Below are positions 4,740-59,661 of a stretch of 63,210 nt of DNA, one piece after another. The stretch spans positions 1-63,210 of the forward strand of contig JAGLWU010000020.1 of assembly GCA_023133275.1 (NCBI GenBank), read 5' to 3'. Position 1 is the stretch's first letter. Every line of letters starts with the position of its first letter. Made by a program: the position numbers and the translations under genes. The notes under the pieces are model-generated. The model was given only the letters and a program-made list of their open reading frames with translations, had not been told where the DNA came from and did no database searches. Source of the DNA: Candidatus Moraniibacteriota bacterium (GTDB lineage: Bacteria > Patescibacteriota > Minisyncoccia > Moranbacterales > GCA-2747515).

Positions 4740-4765
4740 ATTATTAACTCTTTTCAAAATTAAAA

Positions 4766-4785
4766 CAAGGAGTCATGACTCCTTG
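4766..4785. repeat. perfect 20-bp palindrome CAAGGAGTCATGACTCCTTG next to a GC box
   Basis: Read directly. A sequence-variant partner, AACAAGGGGTCATGACCCCTTGTT, sits at 12261-12284 in the same position relative to a GC box. Confidence 0.8.
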
Positions 4786-4793
4786 TCCAAAAA

Positions 4794-4811
4794 AGCCCGT
4801 GCGGCGAGCAC
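4794..4811 (+). repeat. GC-box repeat, exact AGCCCGTGCGGCGAGCAC
   Basis: Exact 18-mer flanked by an A-run and a T-rich tract, between convergent genes. Confidence 0.9.
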
Positions 4812-11959: not shown

Positions 11960-12072
11960 AATATTTAGATTTTTAGTATTTTAGACAATTAGACTCGTAG
12001 AAACGTAGTACTGCTACGTTTCAAATTTCAATTAGAAATTTATAAATTAATATTTTTCAAAAAGTACAGCCA

Positions 12073-12241: not shown

Positions 12242-12291
12242 AGTAAACTTTCAGAATTTCAACAAGGGGTCATGACCCCTTGTTTCAGAAA

Positions 12292-12309
12292 AGCCCGTGC
12301 GGCGAGCAC
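12292..12309 (+). repeat. GC-box repeat, exact
   Basis: AGCCCGTGCGGCGAGCAC, preceded by the 24-bp perfect palindrome at 12261-12284. Confidence 0.9.
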
Positions 12310-13692: not shown

Positions 13693-13710
13693 GTGCTCGC
13701 CGCACGGGCT
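13693..13710 (-). repeat. GC-box repeat, exact (reverse orientation)
   Basis: GTGCTCGCCGCACGGGCT, 20 nt upstream of the ruvC start codon. Confidence 0.9.
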
Positions 13711-13714
13711 TTTT

Positions 13715-13734
13715 GGGTTTAAAATTTTAAACCC
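13715..13734. repeat. perfect 20-bp palindrome GGGTTTAAAATTTTAAACCC followed by CTACAA
   Basis: Same position relative to the GC box as GGGTTTGCCAGTGGCAAACCC at 41843-41863 and GGGTTTGCCAGTAGCAAACCC at 54595-54615. A reverse copy lies at 32644-32667. Confidence 0.85.
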
Positions 13735-14051
13735 CTACAAATTTTTAAATCCTCCAGTTTTATCATTCAGACATGTCATTCCGGAAAATTTTTTATTTTT
13801 GAAAAAAATCAAAAATTTATCCGGAATCTTAAACTTTAATATTTAAGAAAACATTAAGTACAATGTTCTTCCGAGATCCTTATAAAAAATGAAATAATTT
13901 TTCAGGATGACAAGACAGAGAGGATCTGCACTCAGCTTGATTGGGTGATGACACATAATAGATTTGTGATAATTTTTATTTAGAACGACAAACTTTTCTC
14001 TTCTCTTTTTTCAAAAAGTCTAGTTTTCTAATCATCTAATGAGTTAATTAT

Positions 14052-19144: not shown

Positions 19145-19235
19145 TTTTTGCCTTTATTATTAAATTTTTATTAAGTTATTTTTCTTAATTTATTTTAAAC
19201 GTAGCGGTGCTACGTTTTTACAAATTTAAAATTGT

Positions 19236-20375: not shown

Positions 20376-20393
20376 GTGCTCGTCGCACGGGCT
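20376..20393 (-). repeat. GC-box repeat, 1 substitution
   Basis: GTGCTCGTCGCACGGGCT, whose reverse complement is AGCCCGTGCGACGAGCAC. Confidence 0.85.
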
Positions 20394-20435
20394 TTTTTGA
20401 AACCATAGTAATTTAAAACTCTCGTGATTTTCTGT

Positions 20436-21828: not shown

Positions 21829-21842
21829 TAATGTATGGATAA

Positions 21843-21875
21843 TAAAAACCACTTCTAAGTTGAGAAGTGGTTTTT
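21843..21875. terminator. bidirectional intrinsic terminator
   Basis: AAAAACCACTTCtaagttGAGAAGTGGTTTTTA between convergent genes. Confidence 0.7.
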
Positions 21876-21896
21876 ATTTGCAAATTTTCTGAAATA

Positions 21897-24800
21897 TTAC
21901 AAATCTGTAACTCTTTTAACTTCATCAAAAGTCGTAACACCTTCCAACGCCTTCAAAACACCATCCTGTTTTATCGTTAACATACCATTTTCAATCGCTT
22001 TCTTTTTAATTTCAGAAGCCAGTTCACCATGCGAAATCACTAAACGCAAATCATCGTCTATCACCAAAATTTCACTAATTACCGTTCTACTTTTATAACC
22101 AATTTCATTACATTTCTCACAACCAACCTTTTCGTATAAATAATTCATTTCAGGAATTGGAAAATCAATTTTTGGAGTAATATTTTCAATAATTTTTGAA
22201 ATAATATTTTTTTGTTCTTCTGTTATTTTTACTTTCTTTTTACAATCGCAAAGTTTACGCACCAATCTTTGAGCGACAAAAGCATTTACAGAAGTAGTAA
22301 TATCATCCGTACTAATTCCTAAATTTAACAATCTTTGAATTGCACCAATTGCATCATTCGTGTGAAGTGAAGAAATTAATAAATGTCCCGTCAAAGCAGC
22401 ATTTACAGCCGTTTCAGCCGTTTCATTGTCACGAATTTCACCAACCAACATTATATCGGGATCCTGACGAAGAAGTGAACGTAAAGCAGAAGAAAAAGTG
22501 TAGCCAGATTCCTGATCAATTTGAGTTTGCAAAATTCCATCCAACTGATATTCAATCGGATCTTCAATAGTTATAATTTTAACTTCAGGACTTTGAATTT
22601 CTTTTAACAGACTGTAAAGAGTGGTAGTTTTTCCAGAACCAGTTGGTCCAGTGTTCAAAATAATTCCATGAGGTTTTTTTACTTCTTTAATTATTTTATT
22701 TAAATTGTACGGACGAATTCCCAAGACATTAATATTTAATTCTACAGTTTCTCTATTCAACAAACGCAACACAACCGTTTCACCAAAGCCTCCAGCGATT
22801 ATAGAAACACGAACATCCATTTTAAAATCTTTCATTTCATTTTCCACTTCATAAAGAACTCGGAAGCGACTATCGGAAACGCCTTGTCGAACTGTAGTGG
22901 GAATATTACTCAATTCTTTTATTTTTCCAAGTAGCGGAGGATAATTAATTAAAGGTATTTCAGCTATATTTTGTAACACGCCATCAACTCTCATTCTGAT
23001 AAAAACTTTTTCTTCTTGTGGTTCAATGTGAATATCACTGGCTCTCAAAAATTTTCCGTAAGCAAAAATGAGAGGTAGCATATCTTGATCGTTGGCTTTA
23101 TTTATACTTTCATTAATAACATTTTTACCGTGAGAAAGCTCTTGCGACATTTTCTGTTTTTCAATATCGACGAAAACTCCACGAGAAAGAGTTTGAAACA
23201 TTAAATCATCGTAAAGACTTTTAATTAAATCACTTTCTGACGTAACTCTAAAAATTTCTTCCATTGAAGTAACGCCGTCAATTGCTTTTAATACACCATC
23301 TTGTGTCATAGTAACAAAGCCTTCCTCAATTGCCGTTTTCATAATTGCTGTTTCACTTTCCATATTTAAAATCAATTTTTCAATATTTTCGCTCATGGTG
23401 AGAACTTCAAAAATTCCAATCCGTCCTTTGTAGCCAGTTTGATTACATTTTTTACAACCTCTTGGTTTATAAAGATGGGAAACGGTTTTTGGGATTTTCA
23501 CTTTTGCTTTTGGAGAAACTAAAGTCAACATTTGCAATAAAGTTTCAATTGTTTCTTGAGCAGGTTCATATCTCTCTTTGCAACCACACAATTTTCGAAC
23601 TAATCTTTGTGCCATAAAAATATTGGTAGCGGCGGGAATTAAAGTTGGCTTAACTCCTAATTCTAAAAGTCGAGAAACAGTGGCTGGAGCATTATTAGTG
23701 TGTAAAGTTGATAAAACTAAATGTCCTGTCAAGGCAGCATTGATAGCAATGTTAGCCGTTTCATCATCACGAATTTCACCAACTAAAATAATATCAGGAT
23801 CTTGACGAACGATGGCACGTAAACCCTTGGCAAAAGTATAATTTTTATCTTTAGAGACTTCAGTTTGAGAAATTCCTTCAATCTCATATTCAATCGGATC
23901 TTCAATCGTAATTATTTTTGTTTTAGGAGTTTTGATATGATTTACTAAAGTGTAAAGAGTAGTAGTTTTACCAGAGCCAGTTGGTCCTGTCGTTAAAATC
24001 ATTCCAGTATTTTTACTAATATTATTTTGAACATCCTCCGCCGCTTTTCCAATCAAGCCTAATTCTGACATTTGAACATTGATACTTTCGTTATCTAAAA
24101 GACGCATCACAATTCCTTCAAATTTTTTCCCTGGAATACTACTGACTCTGACATCAATGGAACGAGTTTTATTAACGCTAAAAGAAAAGTGTCCATCTTG
24201 TGCTTCTCTTTTAATATTGATTTTCATTCCGCTCATTAATTTAATCCGAGAAAGAGCTAATTTATAAGTTTTGTGTGGAAAATTAACAATATCTTGTAAA
24301 ACACCATCAATTCTGTAACGTAATCGCACACCCTCTTTTTGTGGCTCAAGATGAATGTCGCTGGCATTCAATTTTACTGCCGCAGAAAAAAGAATATGTA
24401 AAAGCTCAGTGGTCGGCATTGAATCAATTTTATTTTTCAAATCCAACAGTTTTCCAATTCCTGTGTTAAAATTTTCTAACTCTTCGCCAGTCAACATTAA
24501 ACGCATCACGTCTATTGAATCGATAAAATAAGCCCCTCGATATTGTTTTAAGGCTTGTTCTAAAGATGATGGTGAAATTACATACAATCTAATTTCCCAA
24601 TTATTTGTTTCACTTAATTCATTTAGAAATTCTAAAGTATCGCTGTTCAACGGATCGGTTGTTCCTATTCTTATTAAATTTCCAGCTCGGAAAAAAATGA
24701 CTAGATTGTATTTTTCAGAAAGTTCTTGTTTTATTAAAGATACGTCATCACTATTTATTGGCAGTAGGTGTAAATCTGCATAACCCAAACTTAATTTTCT

Positions 24801-24917
24801 GGCTATTCGAGAGGCATATTCCTCAGATCCTTTTTCTTGAAGCATTTCTATTTCTCGTCGAGTTTCTTCTTCGTGGAGAGGTTGTGATTTTTGTGTTGTT
24901 TGGGTTACTTTGACCAT
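21897..24917 (-). CDS. pilB: tandem-duplicated type IV pilus / T2SS assembly ATPase (PilB/GspE x2 in one polypeptide)
   Basis: N-terminal T2SSE_N-like domain, then two full ATPase cores. Module 1: ASDIHLEP, GPTGSGKTTTLYTL, DPDIILVGEIRD, TGHLVLSTLHTN, CGC...CKKCNQTGYKGRIGIFE. Module 2: ASDIHIEP, GPTGSGKTTTLYSL, DPDIMLVGEIRD, TGHLLISSLHTN, CDC...CEKCNEIGYKSR. Confidence 0.85.
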   Translation of the reverse strand: MVKVTQTTQKSQPLHEEETRREIEMLQEKGSEEYASRIARKLSLGYADLHLLPINSDDVSLIKQELSEKYNLVIFFRAGNLIRIGTTDPLNSDTLEFLNELSETNNWEIRLYVISPSSLEQALKQYRGAYFIDSIDVMRLMLTGEELENFNTGIGKLLDLKNKIDSMPTTELLHILFSAAVKLNASDIHLEPQKEGVRLRYRIDGVLQDIVNFPHKTYKLALSRIKLMSGMKINIKREAQDGHFSFSVNKTRSIDVRVSSIPGKKFEGIVMRLLDNESINVQMSELGLIGKAAEDVQNNISKNTGMILTTGPTGSGKTTTLYTLVNHIKTPKTKIITIEDPIEYEIEGISQTEVSKDKNYTFAKGLRAIVRQDPDIILVGEIRDDETANIAINAALTGHLVLSTLHTNNAPATVSRLLELGVKPTLIPAATNIFMAQRLVRKLCGCKERYEPAQETIETLLQMLTLVSPKAKVKIPKTVSHLYKPRGCKKCNQTGYKGRIGIFEVLTMSENIEKLILNMESETAIMKTAIEEGFVTMTQDGVLKAIDGVTSMEEIFRVTSESDLIKSLYDDLMFQTLSRGVFVDIEKQKMSQELSHGKNVINESINKANDQDMLPLIFAYGKFLRASDIHIEPQEEKVFIRMRVDGVLQNIAEIPLINYPPLLGKIKELSNIPTTVRQGVSDSRFRVLYEVENEMKDFKMDVRVSIIAGGFGETVVLRLLNRETVELNINVLGIRPYNLNKIIKEVKKPHGIILNTGPTGSGKTTTLYSLLKEIQSPEVKIITIEDPIEYQLDGILQTQIDQESGYTFSSALRSLLRQDPDIMLVGEIRDNETAETAVNAALTGHLLISSLHTNDAIGAIQRLLNLGISTDDITTSVNAFVAQRLVRKLCDCKKKVKITEEQKNIISKIIENITPKIDFPIPEMNYLYEKVGCEKCNEIGYKSRTVISEILVIDDDLRLVISHGELASEIKKKAIENGMLTIKQDGVLKALEGVTTFDEVKRVTDL

Positions 24918-28832: not shown

Positions 28833-28843
28833 ATTTTTATTTT

Positions 28844-29341
28844 CTACCGAATCAAAAACTTTCCCTTATCATCTGACAAGTTCAAAAAATCATCCAGAGA
28901 CTCAATCAAACGCATGCTCGTCGATTCCCCAAAAGAAACACCCTCAACCCTACATCCAGTCGTTGCCTGCAAATACTCCACTAAAGGAATATAATCACCA
29001 TCACCAGACGCCAAAATAATCACATCTACATGTTTTGACAATTTAATTGCATCTACTGCCACCCCAACATCCCAATCACCTTTCTTCTGCCCACCTGGAA
29101 AAATCTGTAAATCTTTAGTTTTCACTTCGTAACCAGCTTTCTCCAAAGCATCAAAAAATTTATCTTCTGACGCTTCTTCAGTTGCAATGCCATAACCGAT
29201 TGAACGAATTAATTTTCGATTCCCCACAGATTCAGTCAACAAATTCTTATAATTCACCTTTTTTTTATACAAAACTTTCGCACTGTAATATAAATTTTGA
29301 ATGTCCACCAAAACGGCCACTCGTTGATCTTTATGTTTCAT
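28844..29341 (-). CDS. NYN-domain (LabA-like) protein
   Basis: RVAVLVDIQNLYYS, GDWDVGVAVDAI, VDVIILASGDGDYIPLVEYLQ. Confidence 0.8.
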   Translation of the reverse strand: MKHKDQRVAVLVDIQNLYYSAKVLYKKKVNYKNLLTESVGNRKLIRSIGYGIATEEASEDKFFDALEKAGYEVKTKDLQIFPGGQKKGDWDVGVAVDAIKLSKHVDVIILASGDGDYIPLVEYLQATTGCRVEGVSFGESTSMRLIESLDDFLNLSDDKGKFLIR

Positions 29342-29702
29342 AAACTTTTTATTTAAAAATTACTACTTTTATTTTATCACACATTTTGTTTTAGTAAAAA
29401 ATATTTTGGAAAAAACAAGGATTTAATGTGTTGAATAAAATTTATCGAAATTGTTATATTTTATTTTAATTTACTTTTATTGTATTTGCAAAGATGAAAA
29501 TTTTTTAAATTTATTTTTTTGAAAATGTTTAATGCAAGTTTATTTACAGACAAATTATTCAAAAATAAGGATTGACATTAAATTAGGTAAAGTTTATTCT
29601 TAATTATAATTGAGGAAAAGGTTGTGATAAAAATTTGAAAAATCTTTTTGAAAATTTTCATTTTAAATATAATAAAATGAAAATGCAAACTATTTTCAAA
29701 AA

Positions 29703-29720
29703 AAGCCCGTGCGGCGAGCA
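29703..29720 (+). repeat. GC-box repeat, exact
   Basis: AGCCCGTGCGGCGAGCAC, 25 nt upstream of the 29745 start codon. Confidence 0.9.
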
Positions 29721-29744
29721 CTTTTTTAATTATTAAAATATTTT

Positions 29745-30491
29745 ATGAAAGAACAGGATATTATTGAGCGGTTTCGGATTTGTCGTTATGGTAAATCGGA
29801 TTCTGTTGTCGTGGAGGGGATTCATGCTTTTAAACATGCGTATCGTTTTGGGGCGAAATTTGAAAATGTTTTTTGTTCGAATAAAAATAAAGTTATTTCT
29901 TTGACGGCGAAAATTGCGAGTGAGAGGGAGGCAAAAATTTTGAGTGATTTGATTGTGGAAGTGGATGGTGATTTTTTAGCGAAACTGTCTCCGCATCCGA
30001 TTCGAACTGAATTGATTTCTTTGGTGAAAAAACCTGAACAGAAAAAGATTACGGATTTAGATCAGGATAAACCGATTGTTTTTTTGGAAAATCCACATGA
30101 TACGAAGAATGTTGGAGCGACGGTTCGAGTGGCAGCGGCGTTTGGGGTGGCGGCTTTGTGTGTGAGTGGGGAAATTAATCCTTGGCATGCGGGTTGTGTT
30201 AAATCTGGTTCTGGTTTGCATTTTGCGATTCCGATTTTTAAAGTAAAAAGTCTTGAGGAAATTTCTTCAGGGCGAATGACAGTGGCTTGTGATGCGGATG
30301 GTGAAAATATGTATGAGACGGTTTTGCCGAAAAATTCTATTTTGGTTTTTGGGACGGAGCGGTATGGAATTACGGACGGGGTTAAGAAATCTGTGGATAA
30401 AATTATTTCGATTCCGATGATGGAGAATGTTTCGAGTTTGAATTTGGCGACTTCGGTTTCGGCTGTTTTGTTTGGAGCTAATTTTAGCTAG
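29745..30491 (+). CDS. TrmH/SpoU-family RNA 2'-O-methyltransferase
   Basis: FLENPHDTKNVGATVRVAAAFG, LVFGTERYGIT, ISIPMMENVSSLNLATSVSAVLF. Confidence 0.85.
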   Translation: MKEQDIIERFRICRYGKSDSVVVEGIHAFKHAYRFGAKFENVFCSNKNKVISLTAKIASEREAKILSDLIVEVDGDFLAKLSPHPIRTELISLVKKPEQKKITDLDQDKPIVFLENPHDTKNVGATVRVAAAFGVAALCVSGEINPWHAGCVKSGSGLHFAIPIFKVKSLEEISSGRMTVACDADGENMYETVLPKNSILVFGTERYGITDGVKKSVDKIISIPMMENVSSLNLATSVSAVLFGANFS

Positions 30492-31018: not shown

Positions 31019-31141
31019 TTTTCACGCTAGTCGTCGTGTAGTATTTGCGACGACTGGTGGGGAAAAGTAAAATTATTATTTTGCTTTTCCTTCTCATTTT
31101 CTTACTAATCTGTAAAGAAGATTGGTGAAAAAATTGAGAAT

Positions 31142-31173
31142 AAAAAACCGTTTCGGTAACGAAACGGTTTTTT
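31142..31173. terminator. bidirectional intrinsic terminator
   Basis: AAAAAACCGTTTCG-gtaa-CGAAACGGTTTTTT, immediately 3' of the minus-strand tRNA. Confidence 0.75.
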
Positions 31174-31196
31174 ATTATATCTAATCTATATCTATG

Positions 31197-32340: not shown

Positions 32341-32678
32341 ATTTTTAAACAATTAGACTTGTAGAAACGTAGCAATGCTACGTTTTGAATAGAGATTTAT
32401 AAATTAAAAATTTTCAAATAATACAGTTCGTCATTTTGTCTGTCATATCTGAACGGATTTATTTTTTCTTCAAAAAAATAAAGGAGTGAAGAATCTCGAT
32501 AAGTTTTTCTGGTATTTTAGTAATTTCAAAGTTTTGTGATTTTCCGCAGGGGATTCTTCACTGCATAAATTTATCTGCGATAAATTTATTACGTTCAAAA
32601 TGACAGCAAACTTGAATAACAAAAAATTTGAATGTTGAAATTTGTAGGGGTTTAAAATTTTAAATCCAAAAAGCCCGT
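32341..32678 (+). repeat. composite intergenic element, copy A2 (ends in a truncated GC box AGCCCGT)
   Basis: Collinear with 11961-12309. Includes the 163-bp palindromic unit at 32442-32604 and the reverse GTAG palindrome TGTAGGGGTTTAAAATTTTAAATCC. Confidence 0.85.
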
Positions 32679-33487: not shown

Positions 33488-33689
33488 AATAATAGACTTT
33501 TAGATTGTTAGATTTGTAGAGATATTGTATTGTAATGTTTTTTTGAATTATAATTTTATTATAACATAAAGATTTTTGTTAGGAATTGGTTATTAAAATT
33601 TGTGGGGGCAGTGCCTTGTGCTTACTTATGCGGTGAATGAAAAGTTTTACGATGAGGGCGATTACGAGGGATCGCCCCTATTATTATAT

Positions 33690-33707
33690 AGCCCGTGCGG
33701 CGAGCAC
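33690..33707 (+). repeat. GC-box repeat, exact
   Basis: AGCCCGTGCGGCGAGCAC, preceded by the hairpin GGGCGATtacgaggATCGCCC. Confidence 0.9.
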
Positions 33708-34082
33708 TTTTTAAAGTATTAGAAAAATTTGTGATGTATTTATAGTGTCAGAAAAACTTATTGGGATTGCCACGTTTCTTCCTACAGTCGTTCCTCGCAA
33801 TGACGTGCTTATGCCAAAATTGACTTTTTTGCTTTAAAATGCGAGAATTAAAATAGTAATTTATTAATTAGAAAAATAGTTTTTTGGCTATGAAGATACA
33901 TATGCGTTTTGTTTTATTTTTTAATGAATGCGTATGTATATTTATAGCAACTTTGTTTAAAGTTTAAGATTCCGGATAAAATTTTCATTTTTCTATGAAA
34001 AACAAAAATTTTTCCGGAATGACAGAATTTTTTAAATTATTCAAAAAATAAAGTTAAACAAAAATTATTTTTCTTAACAAAT

Positions 34083-36291: not shown

Positions 36292-37041
36292 TTATTTTAC
36301 ATTAAAGTCATTTGAAAATCCTTGATATTTTTTAAAGGATAATAGATAGAGACTTTCTAAAGTATTTTCAGAATATTCACGAAGTTCGTTTAGCACAGTA
36401 TTTGTTGATGTTCTATCATCTAATATATTTACTGCATCATTTATTATAATAGGTAGTTGTTCACATAATTTTTTAAATGCAAATTTATCTTCTGTTACAA
36501 TTTCATAAAATATATCAATTGAAATCCTTCTTATTTTTTCATTTGAAATCGATTCTCCATCAAGAGATATTTGCCATGGAATATTTTGACTATTTTTCGC
36601 AATTACTTCAACAAGAAAACATACTGCATTAGGTTTAGAATTAATCTTATGTTGCATTCGCATATATGTTTTTTGGGAAGATGATGAATTCATTGTGTTG
36701 TGTTTATTCTTCATTTCTACATAAATTTTTTCTTTCTCATTTATAATATCAAAGCCTTTTTTTGGGACATTCCAAAAATTGGTTATATATTTAAAAATAT
36801 TTTGATGAAAATAGCCGATAAGATTTGTGTTGCTTTTATCAATTTGTCTACTAACTTCGTTTTCAATTCTATCTTCAATATTTTCCTTATAAACTCTTGA
36901 ATCAAAGGTCATTTTGATTGGGTCTATTAAATTTTTATTAAAATCTTTTAAATCAATTGCAAATCTATACTTTTCCACAGTTTCTTTTACATGTTTTAAT
37001 ATATTTTCGTCTGATATAAAATCTAAATTATATTTGCTCAT
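36292..37041 (-). CDS. probable type II restriction endonuclease (partner of the adjacent C5-methyltransferase)
   Basis: 249-aa ORF, 5 nt downstream of the methyltransferase gene on the same strand, with no other recognisable family. The call rests on context. Any Eco47II-like affinity is only a guess. Confidence 0.45.
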   Translation of the reverse strand: MSKYNLDFISDENILKHVKETVEKYRFAIDLKDFNKNLIDPIKMTFDSRVYKENIEDRIENEVSRQIDKSNTNLIGYFHQNIFKYITNFWNVPKKGFDIINEKEKIYVEMKNKHNTMNSSSSQKTYMRMQHKINSKPNAVCFLVEVIAKNSQNIPWQISLDGESISNEKIRRISIDIFYEIVTEDKFAFKKLCEQLPIIINDAVNILDDRTSTNTVLNELREYSENTLESLYLLSFKKYQGFSNDFNVK

Positions 37042-37046
37042 ATTTT

Positions 37047-38072
37047 TTATTTTAACTTTAATAAATATTTTTTAATTTGTTTTCCGACTGCATATGCAAG
37101 ATTAATGGGGACAGCATTACCAATCTGTTTATATTGTTGAGATACTGAACCTGTAAATTTCCAATTATCAGGAAATCCTTGTATCCTTGCAGATTCTCGA
37201 ATTGTTAAAGGTCTTATTTCATCTGGATGACATCTTTCAGTTTGCTTTTGTGCGGGGCTACATAAAATTGTTAAAGAGGGTTCATTCCATGATAATTTTC
37301 TAGCTATTCCAGTTTTTCCACCTCCTAAATAATAACTCTTTCCCATATATTCTTTCGCAATTTCTTCTGGTAAATCACGCCAACATCCGCCAGCAGGAAC
37401 TAATTTAAAAATATTTATTTTTTTTTCATTATATGGAGAATGTGGTGATTCTGGAACATTTTTTAAAACATCTTTTAATACAGGTTTTTTATTTGATGGT
37501 TTAGGAAATACAAAATCAGAACCTATTTTTTTATGTATATCATTTCTAACGCCTATTATAAAAACTCGCATTCTTTTTTGTGCCACGTTATAATCCCATG
37601 AGTTTAAAACTTGATATACAACATTATATCCAGCATTTTCAAATACCTTTATCATTATTTTTAGTGTTTTTCCTCCATCGTGAGATACTAAACCTTTTAC
37701 ATTTTCTGCTAAAAACATTTTTGGTTTAATTTCAGAAAGAATTTTAGCAAAATCATAAAATAAAGTTCCACGTACATCTTCTAATCCAAGTTTTCTTCCT
37801 GCATAACTAAAAGATTGACATGGATATCCTCCAGATAATAATGTAACTTCTTCTGATGAATTTAAATACTTTTTAATACCTTCCTTTGAAAATAATTGAA
37901 CATCTTTATTTTCAATATTCCAATTAGGTCTATTCAGTTTTAATGTGTTTATGCTATGAGCATCATTATCTGTAATAAGAGTTTTTTTGAAATCAGCTTT
38001 TTCTAAGCCTAATGCAAGTCCTCCGGCTCCAGCAAATAATTCAACAACTGTTAATTTTTTCTTTTCTGACAT
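37047..38072 (-). CDS. dcm: DNA (cytosine-5)-methyltransferase
   Basis: Motif I ELFAGAGG, motif IV GGYPCQSFS, motif VI LAENVKGL, motif VIII QKRMRVFIIG, motif X QIGNAVP. Confidence 0.9.
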   Translation of the reverse strand: MSEKKKLTVVELFAGAGGLALGLEKADFKKTLITDNDAHSINTLKLNRPNWNIENKDVQLFSKEGIKKYLNSSEEVTLLSGGYPCQSFSYAGRKLGLEDVRGTLFYDFAKILSEIKPKMFLAENVKGLVSHDGGKTLKIMIKVFENAGYNVVYQVLNSWDYNVAQKRMRVFIIGVRNDIHKKIGSDFVFPKPSNKKPVLKDVLKNVPESPHSPYNEKKINIFKLVPAGGCWRDLPEEIAKEYMGKSYYLGGGKTGIARKLSWNEPSLTILCSPAQKQTERCHPDEIRPLTIRESARIQGFPDNWKFTGSVSQQYKQIGNAVPINLAYAVGKQIKKYLLKLK

Positions 38073-38185: not shown

Positions 38186-38863
38186 ATGAAAAAAACTACA
38201 CAACAATTAAAAAAATACCACTCACCAAAAGTCTACAAAATCAAAGACAAAATCAATTTTATCATAACCGCAATATTACTACTAGAAATAGCCTTCGCAC
38301 TTTTCCGCACCGAATGGACAATTTTATTCATCACAATCATAACACTCGTTCTAATTTCCTCAGTCCAATTTTTCACAAAAAAAACACAAAGTTACATTTA
38401 CATACCAGAAGAGTTTCAAATCGCAACCGTTCTTTTTATTTTCGCAACCTTATTTCTTGGAGAAATTCACGGATATTACGAAAGCTTTTGGTGGTGGGAT
38501 TTAGTTTTGCACACAGGTTCTGCGGTTGTTTTTGGATTTGTTGGATTTATTATTTTACTAGTTTTACAAAGAGGAGGACGAGTTGAGGCAAAAGCATTAT
38601 GGTTGGCAATTTTTTCTTTCGCATTTGCGATGGCGATTGGTGTTGTGTGGGAAATTTTTGAATTCACAGCTGATCAACTTTTTAATTTAAACATGCAAAA
38701 GTCTGGTTTAACTGATACAATGTGGGATTTGATAGTAAATGCTTTAGGTGCATTATTTGCATCATTTGTTGGATTTTTATATTTAAAAGGCGAAGACAAG
38801 TTTTCTTTTTCAGTTTTGATAGATAGATTTATTAAAAATAATCCCCAATTTTTTAAAGAGTAA
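38186..38863 (+). CDS. integral membrane protein, YjdF/DUF2238-like
   Basis: Six predicted TM helices. WEIFEFTADQ...DTMWDLIVNALGALFA resembles the YjdF E.IEW...D.W D...D....GA signature. Confidence 0.45.
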   Translation: MKKTTQQLKKYHSPKVYKIKDKINFIITAILLLEIAFALFRTEWTILFITIITLVLISSVQFFTKKTQSYIYIPEEFQIATVLFIFATLFLGEIHGYYESFWWWDLVLHTGSAVVFGFVGFIILLVLQRGGRVEAKALWLAIFSFAFAMAIGVVWEIFEFTADQLFNLNMQKSGLTDTMWDLIVNALGALFASFVGFLYLKGEDKFSFSVLIDRFIKNNPQFFKE

Positions 38864-38865
38864 AA

Positions 38866-38947
38866 ATAGATGAGTAGAATGGTAGATTTTTAGACAATTA
38901 GATCTGTAGAACAGTAGACTTGTAGAAATGTTGCATTGTAACGTTTT
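38866..38947 (+). repeat. phased TAGA array plus GTAG-headed hairpin
   Basis: TAGATGAGTAGAATGGTAGATTTTTAGACAATTAGATCTGTAGAACAGTAGACTTGTAGAAATGTTGCATTGTAACGTTTT, with TAGA every 8-9 nt. The hairpin needs G.U pairs available only in plus-strand RNA. Confidence 0.75.
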
Positions 38948-40391: not shown

Positions 40392-40489
40392 TTATCACTA
40401 GTATTTTGAATTTTTAAAAGAACTAGTTTTGTGGCTAGTTCTTTTTGTTTTATTTATTTTAAAAATATTTCAGAATGATATGTCTGGGA

Positions 40490-40585
40490 GTAGGAAACGC
40501 ATATATGCGTTCCCTACTACGAAATGAAGGAATATTTTAGAATTTCGAAAAATGTTGAATGGTGAAAAGTCCGTGCGGCGAGCAC
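40490..40585 (+). repeat. GTAG palindrome + conserved linker + GC box (copy C1; box has 1 substitution)
   Basis: GTAGGAAACGCATATATGCGTTCCCTAC, then ..GAATGAAGGAATATTTTAGAATTTCGAAAAATGTTGAATGGTGAAA, then AGTCCGTGCGGCGAGCAC (40568-40585). Confidence 0.85.
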
Positions 40586-41820: not shown

Positions 41821-41868
41821 GTGCTCGCCGCACGGGCTTTTCGGGTTTGCCAGTGGCAAACCCCTACA
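41821..41868 (-). repeat. GC box (exact, reverse) + palindrome GGGTTTGCCAGTGGCAAACCC + CTACA
   Basis: GTGCTCGCCGCACGGGCTTTTCGGGTTTGCCAGTGGCAAACCCCTACAG. The box lies 26 nt upstream of the 41795 start codon. Confidence 0.9.
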
Positions 41869-42053
41869 GATTTTTAAACCCCCTAAGATATGTCATTCCG
41901 GAAATTTTTTTATTTTTGAATTTTATCGTAGAGACGTTTTGCCAAAACGTCTCTATTTGATTATGTGATGACAAAATGAAAAAATGTATAAGTTTTACGA
42001 AAAGGGATTTTAAAAAATGTTATTTGTGTTATAATAAATGTAATATAAAATAA

Positions 42054-45668: not shown

Positions 45669-45764
45669 GTAGTGAACGCACATGTGCGTTCACTACTACA
45701 GAATGAAAGAATGTTTTAGAATTTCGAAAAATGTTAAATGGTAGAAAGCCCGTGCGGCGAGCAC
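45669..45764 (+). repeat. GTAG palindrome + conserved linker + GC box (copy C2, box exact)
   Basis: Perfect 28-bp palindrome GTAGTGAACGCACATGTGCGTTCACTAC, then the linker ..GAATGAAAGAATGTTTTAGAATTTCGAAAAATGTTAAATGGTAGAA, then the box at 45747-45764. Confidence 0.9.
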
Positions 45765-46671: not shown

Positions 46672-46727
46672 ATAATTAGATTTGTAGATCATTTAGACAA
46701 GTAGATTTTTTGTGAATCTTTTAAGAC

Positions 46728-46904
46728 GTATCCTGCTGAAAGATATAATTTGTTTAAGGGCAGAGCGTTTGAATACAAATTAATCTATTCAGTATTTACA
46801 CTTTAAGTTTAAAGAAAATTTAAAGTGGATCTTTCTTTCGAGATCCTGAATAAATTATTTAATTTTTCTGCGAAAACTAAAATAATTTTTCAGGATGATG
46901 TGAG
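46728..46904 (+). repeat. about 177-bp intergenic repeat, copy B1
   Basis: Collinear with 49665-49843. Shared segments: ...ATATAATTTGTT.AAG.GC.GAGCG.TTGAATACAAATTAAT...ACACTTTAAGTTT.AAGAAA...GATCCTGAATAAATTATTT.ATTTTTCTGCGAAAA.TAAAATAATTTTTCAGGATGAT. Confidence 0.85.
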
Positions 46905-46921
46905 TTGGGAGTTTTATGTTT

Positions 46922-46984
46922 TTCCGTTCGGGATTCTTCACTTAATAAATTTATCTGCGATAAATTTATTCTGTTTAGAATGAC
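46922..46984. repeat. right-half copy of the palindromic unit
   Basis: TTCCGTTCGGGATTCTTCACTTAATAAATTTATCTGCGATAAATTTATTCTGTTTAGAATGAC is nearly identical to 32541-32604. Confidence 0.8.
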
Positions 46985-47030
46985 AGGGAAACTTAAAGTA
47001 TCTTTAAATAATTTTGATTTGTAAAATATT

Positions 47031-47630
47031 ATGGCAAAAAAACGTGTGCGACATCATGTGAATCCTTTAGCGGATTTAACAGAATATTCATTTCAGGGAT
47101 TTGAAAATAATAATCCTATTATTATTGATGTGGGGGCGGATCATGGTGAATTTATTGAGGGATTATTGAAAAAATTTAGTGATGAGAAAAATTTTATTGT
47201 TTTTGAAATTCGTAAACCTTTGGCGGAAAAATTGAGGGAAAAATTTTCAGAATATAAAAATGTGATTGTTTTTGATGGTGATGCAAATCGTAATTTTGAA
47301 AATATTGTTCGACCTTGTTTAGAAAAATCTGAAGTTGAAGAAATTTATGTTAATTTTCCTGACCCTTGGTTTAAGGCTCGACACAAGAAACGGCGTTTTG
47401 TGAATGAGGGTTTTTTGCAGTCAATTAAAGATTGGATGTCGAGTTCAACGGAGTGGATTTTTCAAACGGATCAGAAAAAGTTGTTTGAGGATACTTTGGA
47501 GGTTTTGGAAAATGTTGGGATTGATAGGATTGAGTTTTTTAAAAATTCTCTTTATGATTTGCAAACTAAGTGGGAAAAGGCTAAGATTAAAGAAGATTCA
47601 GAAATTTATCGGATGAGGTTTAAAATTTAG
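47031..47630 (+). CDS. trmB: tRNA (guanine-N7)-methyltransferase
   Basis: IIDVGADHGEF and NFPDPWFKARHKKRRF, the TrmB signature. Confidence 0.9.
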   Translation: MAKKRVRHHVNPLADLTEYSFQGFENNNPIIIDVGADHGEFIEGLLKKFSDEKNFIVFEIRKPLAEKLREKFSEYKNVIVFDGDANRNFENIVRPCLEKSEVEEIYVNFPDPWFKARHKKRRFVNEGFLQSIKDWMSSSTEWIFQTDQKKLFEDTLEVLENVGIDRIEFFKNSLYDLQTKWEKAKIKEDSEIYRMRFKI

Positions 47631-47698
47631 ATTGGTAGATTTTTAGATTAGTAGATGATTAGGCTTGTAAAACTTACTGAAATTACTACGTCATTTTT

Positions 47699-47791
47699 GG
47701 GTTGAAAATTTTTAACCCCTACATTGCAATGATGAGGATGTTTTAGAATTTCAAAAAATGTTGAATGGTGGAAAGCCCGTGCGGCGAGCAC
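47699..47791 (+). repeat. palindrome-CTACA + conserved linker + GC box (copy C3, box exact)
   Basis: GGGTTGAAAATTTTTAACCCCTACA, then ..GATGAGGATGTTTTAGAATTTCAAAAAATGTTGAATGGTGGAA, then the box at 47774-47791. Confidence 0.9.
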
Positions 47792-49597: not shown

Positions 49598-49664
49598 TTT
49601 GGAAAGATTTATGAATTAAGATTTAAGAATAATTTAATTGTTTTTTTAAAATTCTTCAATATAT

Positions 49665-49871
49665 GTCATGCTGGAAAATATAATTTGTTCAAGAGCGAAG
49701 CGATTGAATACAAATTAATTTATTTAGTATCTACACTTTAAGTTTGAAGAAAGCTAAAAGCAGGTCTTTCTTCCTAGATCCTGAATAAATTATTTCATTT
49801 TTCTGCGAAAATTAAAATAATTTTTCAGGATGATATAAATGAGAAGTCGTGGAAGCCCGTGTGGCTAGCAC
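49665..49871 (+). repeat. intergenic repeat copy B2 followed by a GC box (2 substitutions, 49854-49871)
   Basis: See B1. The box AGCCCGTGTGGCTAGCAC ends 5 nt from the sufB stop codon. The element fills the sufB-sufD spacer. Confidence 0.85.
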
Positions 49872-54573: not shown

Positions 54574-54621
54574 GTGTTCGTCGCACGAGCTTTTGGGTTT
54601 GCCAGTAGCAAACCCCTACAA
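54574..54621 (-). repeat. GC box (3 substitutions, reverse) + palindrome GGGTTTGCCAGTAGCAAACCC + CTACA
   Basis: GTGTTCGTCGCACGAGCTTTTGGGTTTGCCAGTAGCAAACCCCTACAA. Confidence 0.8.
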
Positions 54622-54996: not shown

Positions 54997-55070
54997 AATT
55001 ATTTTTTCAAAAATTTATTTCTTGCTTCGTTATATTTTTTATAAACTAATTTAATTCTTTAAAATTTAAA

Positions 55071-55088
55071 AGCCCGTGCGACGAGTGC
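55071..55088 (+). repeat. GC-box repeat, 3 substitutions
   Basis: AGCCCGTGCGACGAGTGC, 13 nt from the stop of the 55101-56162 gene. Confidence 0.8.
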
Positions 55089-56927: not shown

Positions 56928-57509
56928 ATGCAAGAAAATAATTCAGAAGAAAAAACAATTAAGAGACCTTGGCAGGCGAATGCTTGGGTTGGAATAATAG
57001 CTTTATTATTTTTTGTTACTAGTAGTAGATTTTTGTTTTGGGATATAAGGCTTAATGATGTTTATGAGCCTAGTATTAATTATTTTAGTCACTTTATTTC
57101 AGATGTAACTTTAGCATTTTCTTTGTTTGTTAATCCATTTTCTATTATTTTTCTATTTTTAAAAATGATTGATTATGGAAATGGTTCGGTTTTTATTTCT
57201 ATTTTCGTTTTGCTTTTTCTTTTTATTTTTTTAATGAAGGGACTTTTAAAAGGGATTAAAAGTTTTGTTTGGATAGTTATATTTATTTCGTTTATTAGAT
57301 TTTCTTTTTTAATTTATTTTTTATTTAAAGAGTATTCAGATTTTGAACATCTATATTATCTTTTCTATACTCCGTTATTATTTTCTTTATTGTTTGTTTT
57401 TTTGATACTTCTTTCATATCTTGAAATATCTTGTCTAAAACATCCATTTTACAATCAAAAAAAGTTGAACAGAAAAGTTAAAAAGCCCGTGCAGCGAGTA
57501 CTTTTTTGA
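56928..57509 (+). CDS. hypothetical polytopic membrane protein
   Basis: 193 aa with 5 hydrophobic helices. The last 9 codons (KKPVQRVLF) are encoded by a GC-box repeat. Confidence 0.45.
   Translation: MQENNSEEKTIKRPWQANAWVGIIALLFFVTSSRFLFWDIRLNDVYEPSINYFSHFISDVTLAFSLFVNPFSIIFLFLKMIDYGNGSVFISIFVLLFLFIFLMKGLLKGIKSFVWIVIFISFIRFSFLIYFLFKEYSDFEHLYYLFYTPLLFSLLFVFLILLSYLEISCLKHPFYNQKKLNRKVKKPVQRVLF
57484..57501 (+). repeat. GC-box repeat, 2 substitutions, inside the 3' end of an ORF
   Basis: AGCCCGTGCAGCGAGTAC followed by TTTTTTGA, which supplies the stop codon. Confidence 0.8.
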
Positions 57510-59217: not shown

Positions 59218-59370
59218 ATGGTTAGATTTGTAGAAATGTTGCATTGCAACGTTTTGGTGTAAAAGTTTTTAGTTTGTGATATTCTGAGATTCTGAATAAA
59301 TTTTTTAATTTTTTAGGATGACATGTTTTGGATTTTTGTGGAAATATAATTAATAATTTATTTTAAAAAT

Positions 59371-59583
59371 ATGAAAAAAGATAAGAAAAATTTGAGTGAG
59401 TCTTTGAAAGATCTTGACGAAATTGTGGATTGGTTTGAGGAGCGGGATGAGGTTGATGTTGAGGGTGGTTTGAAAAAAGTTAAAATTGGGGTTAAATTGG
59501 TTTCTGAAATTAAAAAACAATTGAAAGATGTGGAGAATGAATTTGAGGAGGCTAAGAAGGAATTGGGGGATGGTAATTTATAG
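59371..59583 (+). CDS. xseB: exodeoxyribonuclease VII small subunit
   Basis: 70 aa. LSESLKDLDEIVDWFE....VDVEGGLKKVKIGVKLVSEIKKQL fits the XseB helical hairpin pattern. The gene lies adjacent to xseA. Confidence 0.7.
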   Translation: MKKDKKNLSESLKDLDEIVDWFEERDEVDVEGGLKKVKIGVKLVSEIKKQLKDVENEFEEAKKELGDGNL

Positions 59584-59590
59584 TTTTATC

Positions 59591-59641
59591 TATAGTTAAA
59601 CACCAACTACAGATTCTTTTTTATTTAAGCTAAAAATAAGC
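59591..59641 (+). repeat. 51-bp direct repeat R1 upstream of the wHTH-PRT gene
   Basis: TATAGTTAAACACCAACTACAGATTCTTTTTTATTTAAGCTAAAAATAAGC. Confidence 0.8.
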
Positions 59642-59661
59642 ATTTTAAGTCATTTTTTATA

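Follow-up and report, generated by a model that had tools for sequence, protein, structure and literature searches.

GTAG-headed palindromes of probable REP type and a replication-polarised GC box in the intergenic mosaics of a Candidatus Moraniibacteriota bacterium

What is known of REP elements and RAYT transposases comes, to our knowledge, almost entirely from Proteobacteria. The genomes of CPR bacteria are small and are regarded as streamlined, and a literature search for REPs and RAYTs in CPR/Patescibacteria found no description of REPs there. A survey of GTAG repeats from 2013 named Proteobacteria, Cyanobacteria, Chloroflexi and the PVC superphylum, and CPR/Patescibacteria are absent from the available part of it (PMC3733652). 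The closest described systems are the GTAG-tagged REPs of Pseudomonas, Stenotrophomonas and Marinomonas with their group 3 TnpA-REP/RAYT enzymes. As far as the available parts of the sources go, these carry GTAG directly 5' of a short, mostly perfect hairpin and have many stem families per genome, species-specific repertoires and extragenic siting (PMC3733652, PMC8266576), and the same traits were found at the locus described here.

The DNA analysed, hereafter the window, is a contig of 63,210 nt with about 30% GC. Its organism is a relative of the MAG Ca. Moraniibacteriota HOU_bin.0114 (the sister genome), which shows 80-88% nucleotide identity in genes and of which six contigs, together about 1.2 Mb, were examined. 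By crude gene calls, roughly one-sixth of the window lies outside ORFs. The intergenic mosaics combine GTAG-headed palindromes with a linker, a GAATGAC hairpin element, head-less palindromes and TAGA octamer arrays (Table 1). With a probability of roughly 0.7, we interpret the GTAG palindromes as REP elements of the GTAG super-family, of the short and mostly perfect type, set in BIME-like mosaics of a CPR host, the GC box beside them being a separate element. As REPs they belong to a known type of element, in a host outside the phyla named in the available part of the GTAG survey (PMC3733652). The REP/RAYT reading had been put forward in the original prediction, and it holds through the enrichment of GTAG, the fixed unit size, the intergenic siting, the differences between species and the RAYTs of the sister genome.

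Compared with the GTAG-tagged REPs and group 3 RAYTs, a Y1/HUH transposase with GTAG-contact residues again adjoins a GTAG palindrome. The differences are the host, a small-genome CPR bacterium of about 30% GC, and the AT-rich stem bases; in addition there are no REPIN-like doublets, RAYT1 has its own REP inside the ORF, and the enzyme is seen in the sister species only. As in the BIMEs of E. coli, palindromic units and conserved non-palindromic linkers form mosaics in which one linker is joined to different REPs, and the combinations vary per site between related genomes. Here, however, the constant partner is the non-REP GC box with a 47-nt linker instead of alternating REP/iREP pairs, and several unrelated palindrome families, both with GTAG and without it, share the mosaics.

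Table 1. Positions of the repeat modules in the window
Position	Strand	Feature	Remarks
4765..4811	+	head-less family B palindrome ACAAGGAGTCATGACTCCTTGT + AAAA + GC box	
11997..12021	+	GTAG-AAACGTAGTACTGCTACGTTT REP	end of TAGA period-8 array
12261..12309	+	family B palindrome AACAAGGGGTCATGACCCCTTGTT + AAAA + GC box	takes the place of the linker middle
13693..13738	-	GTAG-GGGTTTAAAATTTTAAACCC, A, then AAAA + GC box	REP joined directly to box
19197..19221	-	GTAA-AAACGTAGCACCGCTACGTTT REP variant	
20376..20396	-	GC box	1 mismatch
29701..29721	+	GC box	ORF 29745-30491 has its first start codon 23 nt downstream; box conserved in sister (L008 2782)
32361..32385	+	GTAG-AAACGTAGCAATGCTACGTTT REP	
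32644..32678	+	GTAG-GGGTTTAAAATTTTAAATCC + truncated box AAAAAGCCCGT	orthologous sister site with intact box
33516..33540	+	decayed REP GTAG-AGATATTGTATTGTAATGTTT	4 of 4 stem C's changed to T
33687..33707	+	GC box after TATA, not AAAA	conserved in sister (L020 3642); Logan contig break
38922..38946	+	GTAG-AAATGTTGCATTGTAACGTTT REP	two G.T pairs; end of eight-TAGA-octamer array
40490..40517	+	GTAG-headed REP, 28-nt palindrome GTAG-GAAACGCATA/TATGCGTTCC-CTAC (GTAGGAAACGCATATATGCGTTCCCTAC)	one A.C mismatch
40518..40564	+	linker module, first copy (..GAAATGA..TTTTAGAATTTCGAAAAATGTTGAATGGTG)	
40565..40585	+	GC box, AAAA + GTCCGTGCGGCGAGCAC	1 mismatch
41821..41867	-	GTAG-GGGTTTGCCACTGGCAAACCC, G, then AAAA + GC box	
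41928..41952	+	GTAG-AGACGTTTTGCCAAAACGTCT REP	
45669..45696	+	GTAG-headed REP GTAGTGAACGCACATGTGCGTTCACTAC	perfect 28-bp palindrome
45697..45743	+	linker module, second copy	
45744..45764	+	GC box	orthologous sister box L039 4574
47699..47722	+	REP, inverted orientation, GGGTTGAAAATTTTTAACCC-CTAC (GGGTTGAAAATTTTTAACCCCTAC)	
47723..47770	+	linker module, third copy	
47771..47791	+	GC box	orthologous sister box L039 6922
49851..49871	+	GC box	2 mismatches
54574..54619	-	GTAG-GGGTTTGCTACTGGCAAACCC + degenerate GC box	3 mismatches
55068..55088	+	GC box	3 mismatches
57481..57501	+	GC box	2 mismatches; overlaps 3' end of ORF 56928-57509
59230..59254	+	GTAG-AAATGTTGCATTGCAACGTTT REP	directly past stop codon of gene 57598-59217

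The three collinear units of about 96 nt that had been predicted agreed with the sequence read-out, and a repeat search recovered the family independently, the second and third copies being 87 and 65% identical to the first. The linker, given earlier as 45 nt, measured 47-48 nt in each of the three copies. A GTAG-headed palindrome, different each time, precedes the linker in copies 1 and 2 as expected; in copy 3 the palindrome is inverted and carries CTAC at its 3' end only. The 28-bp palindrome described as perfect proved to be so. The second arrangement that had been proposed, in which the box is followed by a short A/T run, a palindrome and CTAC, was recovered at 13693-13738, 41821-41867 and 54574-54619, and in reverse at 32644-32678, with the corrections that the box at 54574 has three mismatches and that 32668-32678 holds only a stump of a box, AAAAAGCCCGT. 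The further box-adjacent palindromes were real and lie at 4765-4786 and 12261-12284.

The linker is part of a larger family with 13 copies in the window plus sister loci, and its copies are usually preceded by a ..GAATGACAG.. module and not by a palindrome. A structured RNA spanning linker and box was rejected, since RNAalifold on the 13 copies gave a weak fold of -6.8 kcal/mol with no compensatory pairs. A scan of the whole window at Rfam gathering thresholds yielded two tRNAs only and no match at the repeats.

In REPs of the GTAG super-family a GTAG or GTGG tetranucleotide stands 0-2 nt 5' of the foot of a palindromic unit of 20-50 nt that can form a hairpin. Here GTAG ranked first among the 256 tetranucleotides directly 5' of GC-containing hairpins. 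Over 543 kb it stood at the 5' foot of a hairpin in 53 of its 1993 occurrences, 6.3 times the overall rate, the runner-up tetranucleotide reaching 3.2 times. The 31 distinct units that were aligned measure 20-21 nt each plus the head and include many stem variants; the invariance of GTAG in this alignment reflects that the units were collected by requiring it. At least 10 unrelated stem sequences occur among the GTAG units, which have only GTAG and length in common. Double-sided changes were present at all eight stem pairs of the alignment, and 98% of the cells were paired, compared with 26-45% when the partner column was shifted by 1-3 positions; the 98% is partly circular because this large covariation set was chosen as hairpins. 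The evidence free of this circularity is smaller and comes from two sets. The stems of five linker-anchored copies (GGAACGCAC, TGAACGCAC and GAAACGCAT) show paired changes on both arms, and nine copies chosen by their upstream TAGA array only have 61 Watson-Crick pairs, 18 G.T pairs, no A.C pair and two others in 81 stem cells. Several GTAG copies are decaying via C-to-T change, and therefore selection on pairing is not uniform. The earlier claim that the stems change and yet stay palindromic is supported by many paired stem variants.

Folding energies were, for example, -13.2 kcal/mol (z -6.3) for the REP at 40490-40517 and -21.4 kcal/mol for another unit, and the palindromes at 45669-45696, 13715-13734 and 12261-12284 are perfect and loop-less. 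GTAG is often one-sided, so that many units are asymmetric, and the asymmetric units lie on the G-rich strand and on the other strand in a ratio of 16 to 6. An excess of this kind is as expected for Y1 enzymes, which act on the lagging-strand template (PMC6006769). REPs have also been described by a GC-rich stem base, with at least three G/C in the first four stem positions (PMC6006769). Stems beginning with GGGT or GGGC conform, those beginning with AAAC, AGAC, TGAA or GGAA do not, and the rule does not hold overall; many stems fail it because the genome has 30% GC. No REPIN-type inverted doublet of one REP was seen, the neighbours in the window differing in sequence (41843 and 41928) or being single. 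The only doublet seen was a tandem direct pair of a palindrome of the RAYT2 type in the sister genome (L039 5570-5690).

The window contains 14 GTAG units, all intergenic, in 12 of its 51 intergenic regions, and the GC box is present in about a quarter of these regions. In the sister genome the GTAG units occur about once per 20 kb (480 kb sampled). Between the two species, orthologous intergenic regions differ in their palindromic modules, and six repeat families with abundant copies in the sister genome have none in the window. For instance, at the sister site of 4765..4811 the box is kept and the palindrome is replaced by a different 200-nt insert, and at that of 57481..57501 the box is accompanied by about 300 nt of extra modules. 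Since the mosaics turn over between sister species, a small genome is no bar to a rich set of selfish hairpin repeats.

The original prediction had named the lack of any Y1 transposase gene as a finding that would speak against it. The 63-kb window has no RAYT gene; two RAYT (TnpA-REP) Y1 transposases, RAYT1 (L014 7225-7767) and RAYT2 (L062 4978-5490), were found in the sister genome, and the prediction was thus not refuted on this count. They scored 29.3 and 30.5, respectively, with Pfam Y1_Tnp (cut-off 23), and for NCBIfam REP_Tyr_transpos (cut-off 80) RAYT1 reached 79.6, just below the cut-off, and RAYT2 82.6. The only PDB match of RAYT1 was 4ER8, the E. coli TnpA-REP. RAYT1 is about 22% identical to E. 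coli RayT and retains the HUH histidines, with H84 and H86 opposite the HMH motif at residue 59, as well as the catalytic tyrosine, with Y164 opposite Y115; its homologues carry the JGI name 'REP element-mobilizing transposase RayT'. W94, Q95 and R104, through which E. coli TnpA-REP contacts GTAG (PMC6006769), correspond to W143, Q144 and R153 in RAYT1 and are invariant in the alignment. A GTAG palindrome, GTAGGGGCGTATTGCCATACGCCCCTAC, precedes the RAYT1 start codon by about 30 nt, and a second one lies inside the ORF. In a manual alignment with E. coli RayT, RAYT2 has R at the position of Q95 and E at that of R104, and it is flanked by an inverted pair of palindromes without GTAG. A search of 5.8 billion proteins did not find the window organism's own RAYT, the best non-self matches to the sister RAYTs being 63-66% identical, and two assemblies with the PNPase gene of the window are identical to it and add no sequence.

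By analogy with the REP family, a unit exposed on the lagging-strand template would fold into a DNA hairpin, and a RAYT/TnpA-REP Y1 (HUH) transposase would recognise this hairpin together with its 5' GTAG. The enzyme would then cut and rejoin single-stranded DNA, by which units could be copied, lost or recombined. Propagation would be limited to copies that still fold and keep GTAG, un-propagated copies would decay, and the stems would thus drift and yet stay palindromic.

The palindromes might instead act at the RNA level, as intrinsic terminators or 3' mRNA-stabilising hairpins that are selected for transcript structure and not moved by a transposase, which we consider improbable. Units do stand directly past stop codons, as at 59230 (gene 57598-59217) and 38922 (gene 38186-38863), and E. 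coli REPs are established to stabilise upstream mRNA, as discussed in the available part of PMC3733652. The mismatches in the array-anchored stems are also G.T pairs, apart from the two other cells, and RNA tolerates G.T; strand-biased deamination alone can account for this pattern. Against a role as terminators, most units are not followed by a T-run, real terminators with long stems and T-runs adjoin units (for example 40416-40445, 21841-21878 and 31137-31178), and units occur in divergent promoter regions as well (41843 and 41928). A terminator moreover has no use for an invariant GTAG head, and unrelated modules replace the units at orthologous sites. An RNA role would account for a possible host use of the units, not for their origin.

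Alternatively, palindromy could be kept by mutation and not by selection, through intra-strand template switching or arm-to-arm gene conversion, the units being inert relics of MITEs or of IS200/IS605-type ends. Template switching yields perfect palindromes with simultaneous changes in both arms, many copies are decaying, and the window has no RAYT. This account is improbable, as it does not explain why GTAG is invariant outside the stem, why all units measure 20-21 nt, why a GTAG REP stands beside RAYT1 and why the family repertoires are species-specific. It is most improbable that the palindromes are double-stranded operators whose symmetry mirrors that of dimeric DNA-binding proteins: several are perfect and loop-less and the head-less family B palindrome TGAACAAGGGGTCATGACCCCTTGTTCA is operator-like, but a single regulator needs a constant sequence instead of at least 10 unrelated stems, GTAG is frequently one-sided and many sites are asymmetric, orientation is biased to one replication strand, and the sites turn over between species, unlike the conserved genes that flank them.

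The GC box does not belong to the REP but behaves as an element in its own right, much more strongly conserved, constrained in sequence and held in one orientation relative to replication. It persists at orthologous sites, and mobile modules pile up on the side of its A-run. It measures 21 nt, AAAA plus 17 nt (AAAA-GCCCGTGCGGCGAGCAC), and has a sharp-edged logo. The 15-mer CCGTGCGGCGAGCAC with up to three mismatches occurs 14 times in the window, against 0.02 expected from shuffles. The hairpin of the box is weak (4-5 bp, -4.6 to -6 kcal/mol, z about -0.2 to -0.4) and has two possible pairings, GCCCG/CGAGC with one C.A mismatch or GTGC/GCAC; the variants, few and mostly transitions, favour neither. 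Only three of 109 copies lie within called ORFs. The box is restricted to this narrow lineage. In JGI metagenomes it had 12 matches, which are attributed to chance because each was single and lay in a contig of 40-68% GC, and a genome scan outside HOU_bin.0114 gave six single chance matches in GC-rich genomes.

It is quite possible, though short of an even chance, that the box is a host signal of chromosome polarity or maintenance, such as a KOPS/Chi-like sequence, a primosome or single-strand initiation site or a site for another replication-linked protein, and not a mobile element or RAYT substrate. Independently of gene direction (Fisher 1.6e-4), 90 of 109 copies (83%) lie on the G-rich strand. 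On contig 4 of the sister genome 17 copies are on the minus and three on the plus strand, on contig 13 there are 15 on the plus and one on the minus strand, and contig 5 shows a reversal of polarity together with that of the GC skew, at about 110-120 kb. The density is about one box per 4.5-5 kb. Despite strong C-to-T pressure on that strand the box is exact in 86 of the 109 copies, and it recurs at no fewer than six orthologous sites. It is retained where neighbouring modules have been replaced. The box has no direct link to any enzyme, and its persistence at orthologous positions suits a role in the host no less than mobility.

The box resembles KOPS/SRS and Chi in leading-strand siting of 80-85%, in a bias that inverts at the skew switch and in a frequency of about one per 5 kb. 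Known polar sequences, however, are motifs of 5-8 nt that are read by FtsK or RecBCD/AddAB and occur in coding as well as non-coding DNA, for the most part within genes, whereas the box has 21 nt, is intergenic and is limited to a narrow lineage. About 10 copies in the sister genome are also split at a fixed position by a 21-nt palindrome, and boxes mark assembly and rearrangement breaks, as repeats do; these points speak against a host signal. With the DUS of Neisseria and the USS of Pasteurellaceae the box has in common that it is a lineage-specific, near-invariant short motif of high copy number, often near gene ends. We know of no strong replication-strand bias of DUS or USS, which are common inside genes, whereas the box is strand-biased and intergenic.

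In the least certain step of our interpretation, a protein most likely recognises the box as a specific sequence on single-stranded lagging-template DNA, and the box itself may be a head-less, REP-like substrate of a Y1 enzyme. The ends of IS200/IS605 elements and their non-autonomous derivatives (PATEs) are mobilised by TnpA Y1 transposases that act on the lagging-strand template. The box shares with such ends the strand-specific orientation relative to replication, and its AAAA with the imperfect hairpin GCCCG/CGAGC formally resembles an end made of guide and hairpin. It differs in that there are no paired left and right ends, no adjoining transposase or TnpB, and no defined target duplication or tetranucleotide, and in that box copies at orthologous sites are conserved and not polymorphic. 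In a wider and rather unlikely view, the box would be a new replichore-polarised intergenic element, a near-invariant, GTAG-less imperfect hairpin (AAAA + GCCCG-TGCGG-CGAGC + AC) that is read on the lagging template by a domesticated Y1/HUH enzyme or a replication-linked host protein and serves as a fixed anchor for the insertion and turnover of modules. If so, a genome of about 1.2 Mb would keep a few hundred boxes, by extrapolation from about one per 5 kb, and purifying selection would maintain them for a function at the level of the chromosome.

It is very improbable that the box serves as an intrinsic terminator of a short, bidirectional kind or as a promoter-proximal element. It has an A-run upstream and about 12 T-rich nucleotides downstream, some copies are followed by TTGACA-like hexamers, and its 3' side is always near a gene boundary (median about 60 nt), which is a gene start in 61 of 93 classifiable cases. 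As an intrinsic terminator the box was rejected: its folding energy is no better than that of shuffles, the canonical box was not flagged by a terminator scan, and true terminators adjoin it. There is no covariation, divergent regions hold 13 of the copies, and in 32 cases the box faces into a gene's 3' end. At pairs of lagging-strand genes the box runs against the genes eight times and with them twice; its orientation therefore follows replication and not transcription, and a promoter element was rejected as a general explanation.

The GC box is the more interesting piece of the mosaics. As a 21-nt motif that keeps its exact sequence against strong C-to-T pressure and shows which way replication runs, it gives direct access to the replichore structure of uncultured genomes, and it may mark a DNA-protein interaction. 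The repeats also break short-read assemblies, as in a Logan contig that stops two bases beyond a box, and could be of use as strain markers.

A palindrome, a conserved linker of 47-48 nt and the GC box (a 21-nt element) form three collinear units in the window, and their sequences agreed with the original prediction. A repeat search run without prompting grouped them as one family (D6), the later copies being 87 and 65% identical to the first. All three contain the three predicted parts, but the palindrome of the third copy is inverted. A second predicted arrangement, in which a GC box adjoins a GGGTTT...AAACCC palindrome with a CTAC/GTAG head, was found at 13693-13738, 41821-41867, 54574-54619 and 32644-32678, but the box at 54574 is degenerate and that at 32668 is an 11-nt stump. 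The head-less palindromes adjoining GC boxes at 4765 and 12261 are real, and the corrections to the earlier description are small. The genes around the collinear copies are ordinary housekeeping genes (DHH phosphoesterase, exonuclease III-like protein, TrmB and EngB-type GTPase). The repeat search also returned D2 (about 98 nt), in which an outer imperfect stem, GGATTCTTCAC ... GTTCAGAATGAC, encloses an inner palindrome, ATAAATTTATCTGCGATAAATTTAT; it often lies 5' of linker and GC box, and its inner part is exchanged for other palindromes at orthologous sites. The two copies of D5, a 207-nt intergenic repeat, are 82% identical and both lie in repeat-rich spacers.

Table. Locations of repeat units, transposase genes and associated elements (L numbers are retrieved loci, mostly from the sister genome HOU_bin.0114)
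Feature	Location	Strand	Remark
Collinear unit 1	window 40490-40585		palindrome, linker, GC box
Collinear unit 2	window 45669-45764		palindrome, linker, GC box
Collinear unit 3	window 47696-47791		inverted palindrome, linker, GC box
RAYT1	L014 7225-7767	minus	passes Pfam Y1_Tnp
RAYT2	L062 4978-5490	minus	passes Pfam Y1_Tnp
D2	window 12153-12250, 20404-20501, 32516-32613, 46896-46993		
D5	window 46706-46912, 49641-49847		
TAGA arrays	window 38862-38931, 47626-47662, 33493-33520, 59215-59233, 62910-62930, 20291-20310		period 8, TAGAnnnn, up to 8 units
Palindrome inside RAYT ORF	L014 7432-7459 (RAYT1), L072 6274-6301, L085 1780-1807, L086 1774-1846		
Split GC boxes (examples)	L036 3069-3110, L046 5051, L035, L015 7024, L056 723, L059, L057, L030 1786		

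The window genes were 80-88% identical at the nucleotide level to those of Candidatus Moraniibacteriota HOU_bin.0114 (CALNYG01), a CPR/Patescibacteria MAG, which indicated that this MAG is a sister species whose orthologous intergenic regions can be compared. The window has about 30% GC, and its PNPase gene matched metagenome contigs only. In a scan of the window and 61 sister loci (543 kb), hairpins with the 5' arm directly after each of the 256 tetranucleotides were counted. GTAG ranked first, with 53 of 1993 occurrences preceding a hairpin, which exceeds the overall rate 6.3-fold; CGTA, in second place (3.2-fold), is GTAG moved by one base. The 31 distinct GTAG units all extend 20 or 21 nt beyond the head and fall into many stem families, such as AAACGTAGC, AGACATTGC, GGAACGCAC, TGAACGGTT, GGGCGTAT, GGGTTTGCC and AGTTCAGGT. 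In about half of them CTAC closes the unit, which makes the head part of the palindrome.

When the 31 units were aligned, double-sided changes were present at all 8 stem pairs, and 98% of the cells were paired compared with 26-45% after the partner column was slid by 1-3 positions, a figure that is partly circular because the set was picked as hairpins. Two other sets were non-circular. Five copies were chosen by linker and GC box only (window 40490, 45669 and 47696; L018 3622; L038 6217); four of them have GTAG-first palindromes with the stems GAAACGCAT, TGAACGCAC and GGAACGCAC (twice), in which the changes are mirrored on both arms, and the fifth is an inverted GGGTTG unit. Nine copies chosen only by an upstream TAGA-octamer array gave 61 Watson-Crick, 18 G.T, 0 A.C and 2 other combinations in 81 stem cells. 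These results indicated that the subfamilies differ by compensated changes, while single copies decay by C-to-T on the GTAG strand. One-sided decay of this kind would follow from strand-biased deamination of the G-rich strand and also from wobble-pair tolerance on the GTAG strand, the two not being separable. The TAGA arrays start at or just past stop codons, and their end is often formed by the GTAG of an AAACGT/AGACAT-type REP; their period puts TAG in all three frames, and 22 of 25 lie on the G-rich strand.

All 14 GTAG units of the window were intergenic. The palindromes were rejected as terminators, since most lack a T-run and true long-stem terminators adjoin them, for example at 40416-40445 just upstream of the first copy. 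They have the hairpin, the GTAG and the species-specific distribution of REPs; of the secondary features, a GC-rich stem base is lacking in many of the stems, and REPIN doublets (inverted doublets of one REP) were not found.

The orthologous spacers differed in content. In the spacers upstream of the genes for the exonuclease III-like protein and the GTPase, a GTAG palindrome plus linker is present in the window, where the sister genome instead has other palindromes and a hairpin element of the GAATGACAG type. Downstream of the gene at 57598-59217, GTAG-AAATGTTGCATTGCAACGTTT in the window compares with a GGAATGAGTG...CACTCATTCC palindrome in the sister genome, and none of six repeat families common in the latter was found in the 63-kb window. 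Such different modules are the species-specific, patchy pattern expected of mobile REPs (PMC3733652). The region upstream of pnp (window 33708-34082, L020 3659-4030) shows about 90% identity between the species in stretches that may be a leader or promoter, and species-specific palindromic inserts break these up. The gene at 28844-29341 is inverted relative to its neighbour at 29745-30491 when compared with the sister genome (window 28841-29744, L008 1-2800), where the inverted segment has GC boxes near either end. A 71-nt unit in 2.2 tandem copies with 76% matches (59579-59738) occupies the spacer before the gene at 59751-60908, which the sister genome lacks at the orthologous position.

The predicted RAYT, the Y1 (HUH) transposase of REPs, was found twice in the 480 kb sampled from the sister genome, but no Y1 transposase-like ORF was present among the ORFs of the 63-kb window. 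A second, frameshifted copy of RAYT2 lies 2 kb away from the first. Against the NCBIfam equivalog "REP-associated tyrosine transposase" (cut-off 80 bits), RAYT2 scored 82.6 and RAYT1 79.6, and the only solved structure matched by RAYT1 was 4ER8, E. coli TnpA-REP bound to REP. The HUH histidines are conserved in RAYT1, as are the catalytic tyrosine (aligned with E. coli Y115) and W143, Q144 and R153, which correspond to the reported GTAG contacts W94, Q95 and R104 of E. coli (PMC6006769); a GTAG palindrome, GTAGGGGCGTATTGCCATACGCCCCTAC, precedes the RAYT1 start codon by about 30 nt. In a manual alignment with E. coli RayT, R and E replace Q95 and R104 in RAYT2, and this gene is flanked by an inverted palindrome pair, GGAAAAGGTG and GGAATGGGTG, with different but compensated stems and without GTAG. 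The types of enzyme and repeat therefore match, as the REPtron model predicts (PMC8266576). The RAYT2-type palindrome family was absent from the 63-kb window. Public homologues of both enzymes were very numerous, some being named RayT by their sources, and at least three matches to RAYT2 (P0164, P0174 and P0240) were named Patescibacteria or Candidatus Pacebacteria; all were at most 66% identical, and a RAYT of the window's organism was not found among them. A palindrome, GTAGGGGCGTAT-NNNN-ATACGCCCCTAC, was also noted inside the ORF of RAYT1 and its homologues in four genomes, where the encoded motif is VGAYxNTPL. At the nucleotide level the two 12-bp arms are kept, although the proteins share just 62-66% identity; a match of the [GAY]x[NTP] type occupies this position in 41 of the 120 closest homologues, and in L086 one arm is amplified fourfold in tandem (NTPLR repeats).

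The original finding is real, and its REP/RAYT interpretation is supported by the GTAG-plus-hairpin anatomy, the diversity of stems with pairing preserved, intergenic location, species turnover, strand bias and sister-genome RAYTs with matching features. The palindromes are supported as REP/RAYT-type elements of a CPR lineage in BIME-like mosaics of REPs and linkers, the cognate RAYT coming from the sister genome only. The CPR is missing from the phyla that the available text of PMC3733652 lists as having GTAG repeats, and a limited literature search returned no publication on REPs in the CPR; as elements these REPs are of an expected kind, but their host is unexpected. By analogy with the REP family, the units would fold on single-stranded lagging-template DNA, where a RAYT would recognise GTAG and hairpin and would cut and rejoin them, and spread would be limited to foldable copies bearing GTAG.

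The 15-mer CCGTGCGGCGAGCAC of the GC box occurred 14 times in the window at up to 3 mismatches, compared with 0.02 expected. The conserved box is AAAA followed by GCCCGTGCGGCGAGCAC, with sharp edges and then a T-rich run of about 12 nt. Among the 109 copies at up to 3 mismatches in the window and sister loci, 86 were exact; in contrast, the third linker-containing unit shares, along its whole length, only 65% identity with the first. A scan with the box 19-mer, covering one genome per species, gave 67 stretches: 59 in HOU_bin.0114 (counted from the scan table), 2 on one AT-rich contig labelled Methylococcales and 6 as single matches in GC-rich genomes. JGI metagenomes gave chance matches only, on contigs of 40-68% GC. 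The GC box is confined to a narrow Moraniibacteriota lineage. The 16.5-kb contig filed under a Methylococcales MAG (JAGLUC010000165.1; L050 and L069) is probably mis-binned; its two sampled stretches have 26-30% GC, and in their GC box, linker and GTAG REPs they agree with the Moraniibacteriota genome.

Of eight sites compared between the window and the sister genome, five (4797, 29707, 33693, 45750 and 47777) have an intact box in both species, and in the window the box was degenerate at 57487, truncated at 32668 and missing upstream of 61209. The flanking modules differed at all compared sites. The variable modules sit on the A-run side of the box, while its 3' side is always near a gene boundary (median about 60 nt). 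In about 10 boxes of the sister genome, a 21-nt palindrome, CCTGCCTGTTCGGCAGACAGG, interrupts the sequence at one constant point (GCGAG|CAC); this palindrome also occurs elsewhere in that genome and was not found in the window. A Logan short-read contig with the window's PNPase gene ends two bases past the box at 33693-33707, which fits a repeat-induced assembly break.

The most telling property of the GC box is its polarity. The GCCCG... form was on the locally G-rich strand for 90 of 109 boxes (p = 3e-12). Between leading-strand gene pairs the box ran with the genes in 46 cases and against them in 9, and between lagging-strand pairs against them in 8 and with them in 2 (Fisher 1.6e-4), so the bias is independent of gene direction; of the 28 boxes in convergent or divergent regions, 22 follow the skew. 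On the sister contigs, boxes were 17 minus and 3 plus on contig 4 (negative skew), 15 plus and 1 minus on contig 13, and 9 plus and 1 minus on contig 15, and on contig 5 skew and polarity change sign together, at about 110-120 kb. The G-rich-strand bias recurs in several other modules, with the gene-orientation effect still included. In sequence, the G-rich strand equals the lagging-strand template, on which IS200/IS605-family Y1 transposases act (PMC6006769). The layout of the box, with a tetranucleotide (AAAA), an imperfect hairpin (GCCCG/CGAGC, C.A mismatch) and a T-run, resembles a Y1 substrate by formal analogy. That the box stays constant under C-to-T pressure speaks for recognition of its sequence, and its polarity speaks for a reader that is linked to replication or specific for single strands. 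A serious competing explanation of the box is a host signal for polarity or maintenance, with the odds somewhat against it, and a typical KOPS/Chi or uptake sequence does not fit. The box folds only into a 4-5-bp hairpin, no better than shuffled sequence, and the terminator scan does not flag it; a terminator was rejected. A structured RNA was rejected as well, no covariation with the linker being found. The GC box lies outside every family tested and could be the new part of the system; replichore-polarised and near-invariant, it merits follow-up.

Two other loci of the window were noted. Genes for an Eco47II-type restriction endonuclease and a C5 DNA methylase form a pair next to pnp on the minus strand (36292-38072; Pfam matches on an identical contig). 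The 1006-aa protein at 21897-24917 has two T2SSE (PilB-like) ATPase stretches, and an internal DNA duplication (D8, D9) spaced 1338 nt indicated that it is a tandem double ATPase.
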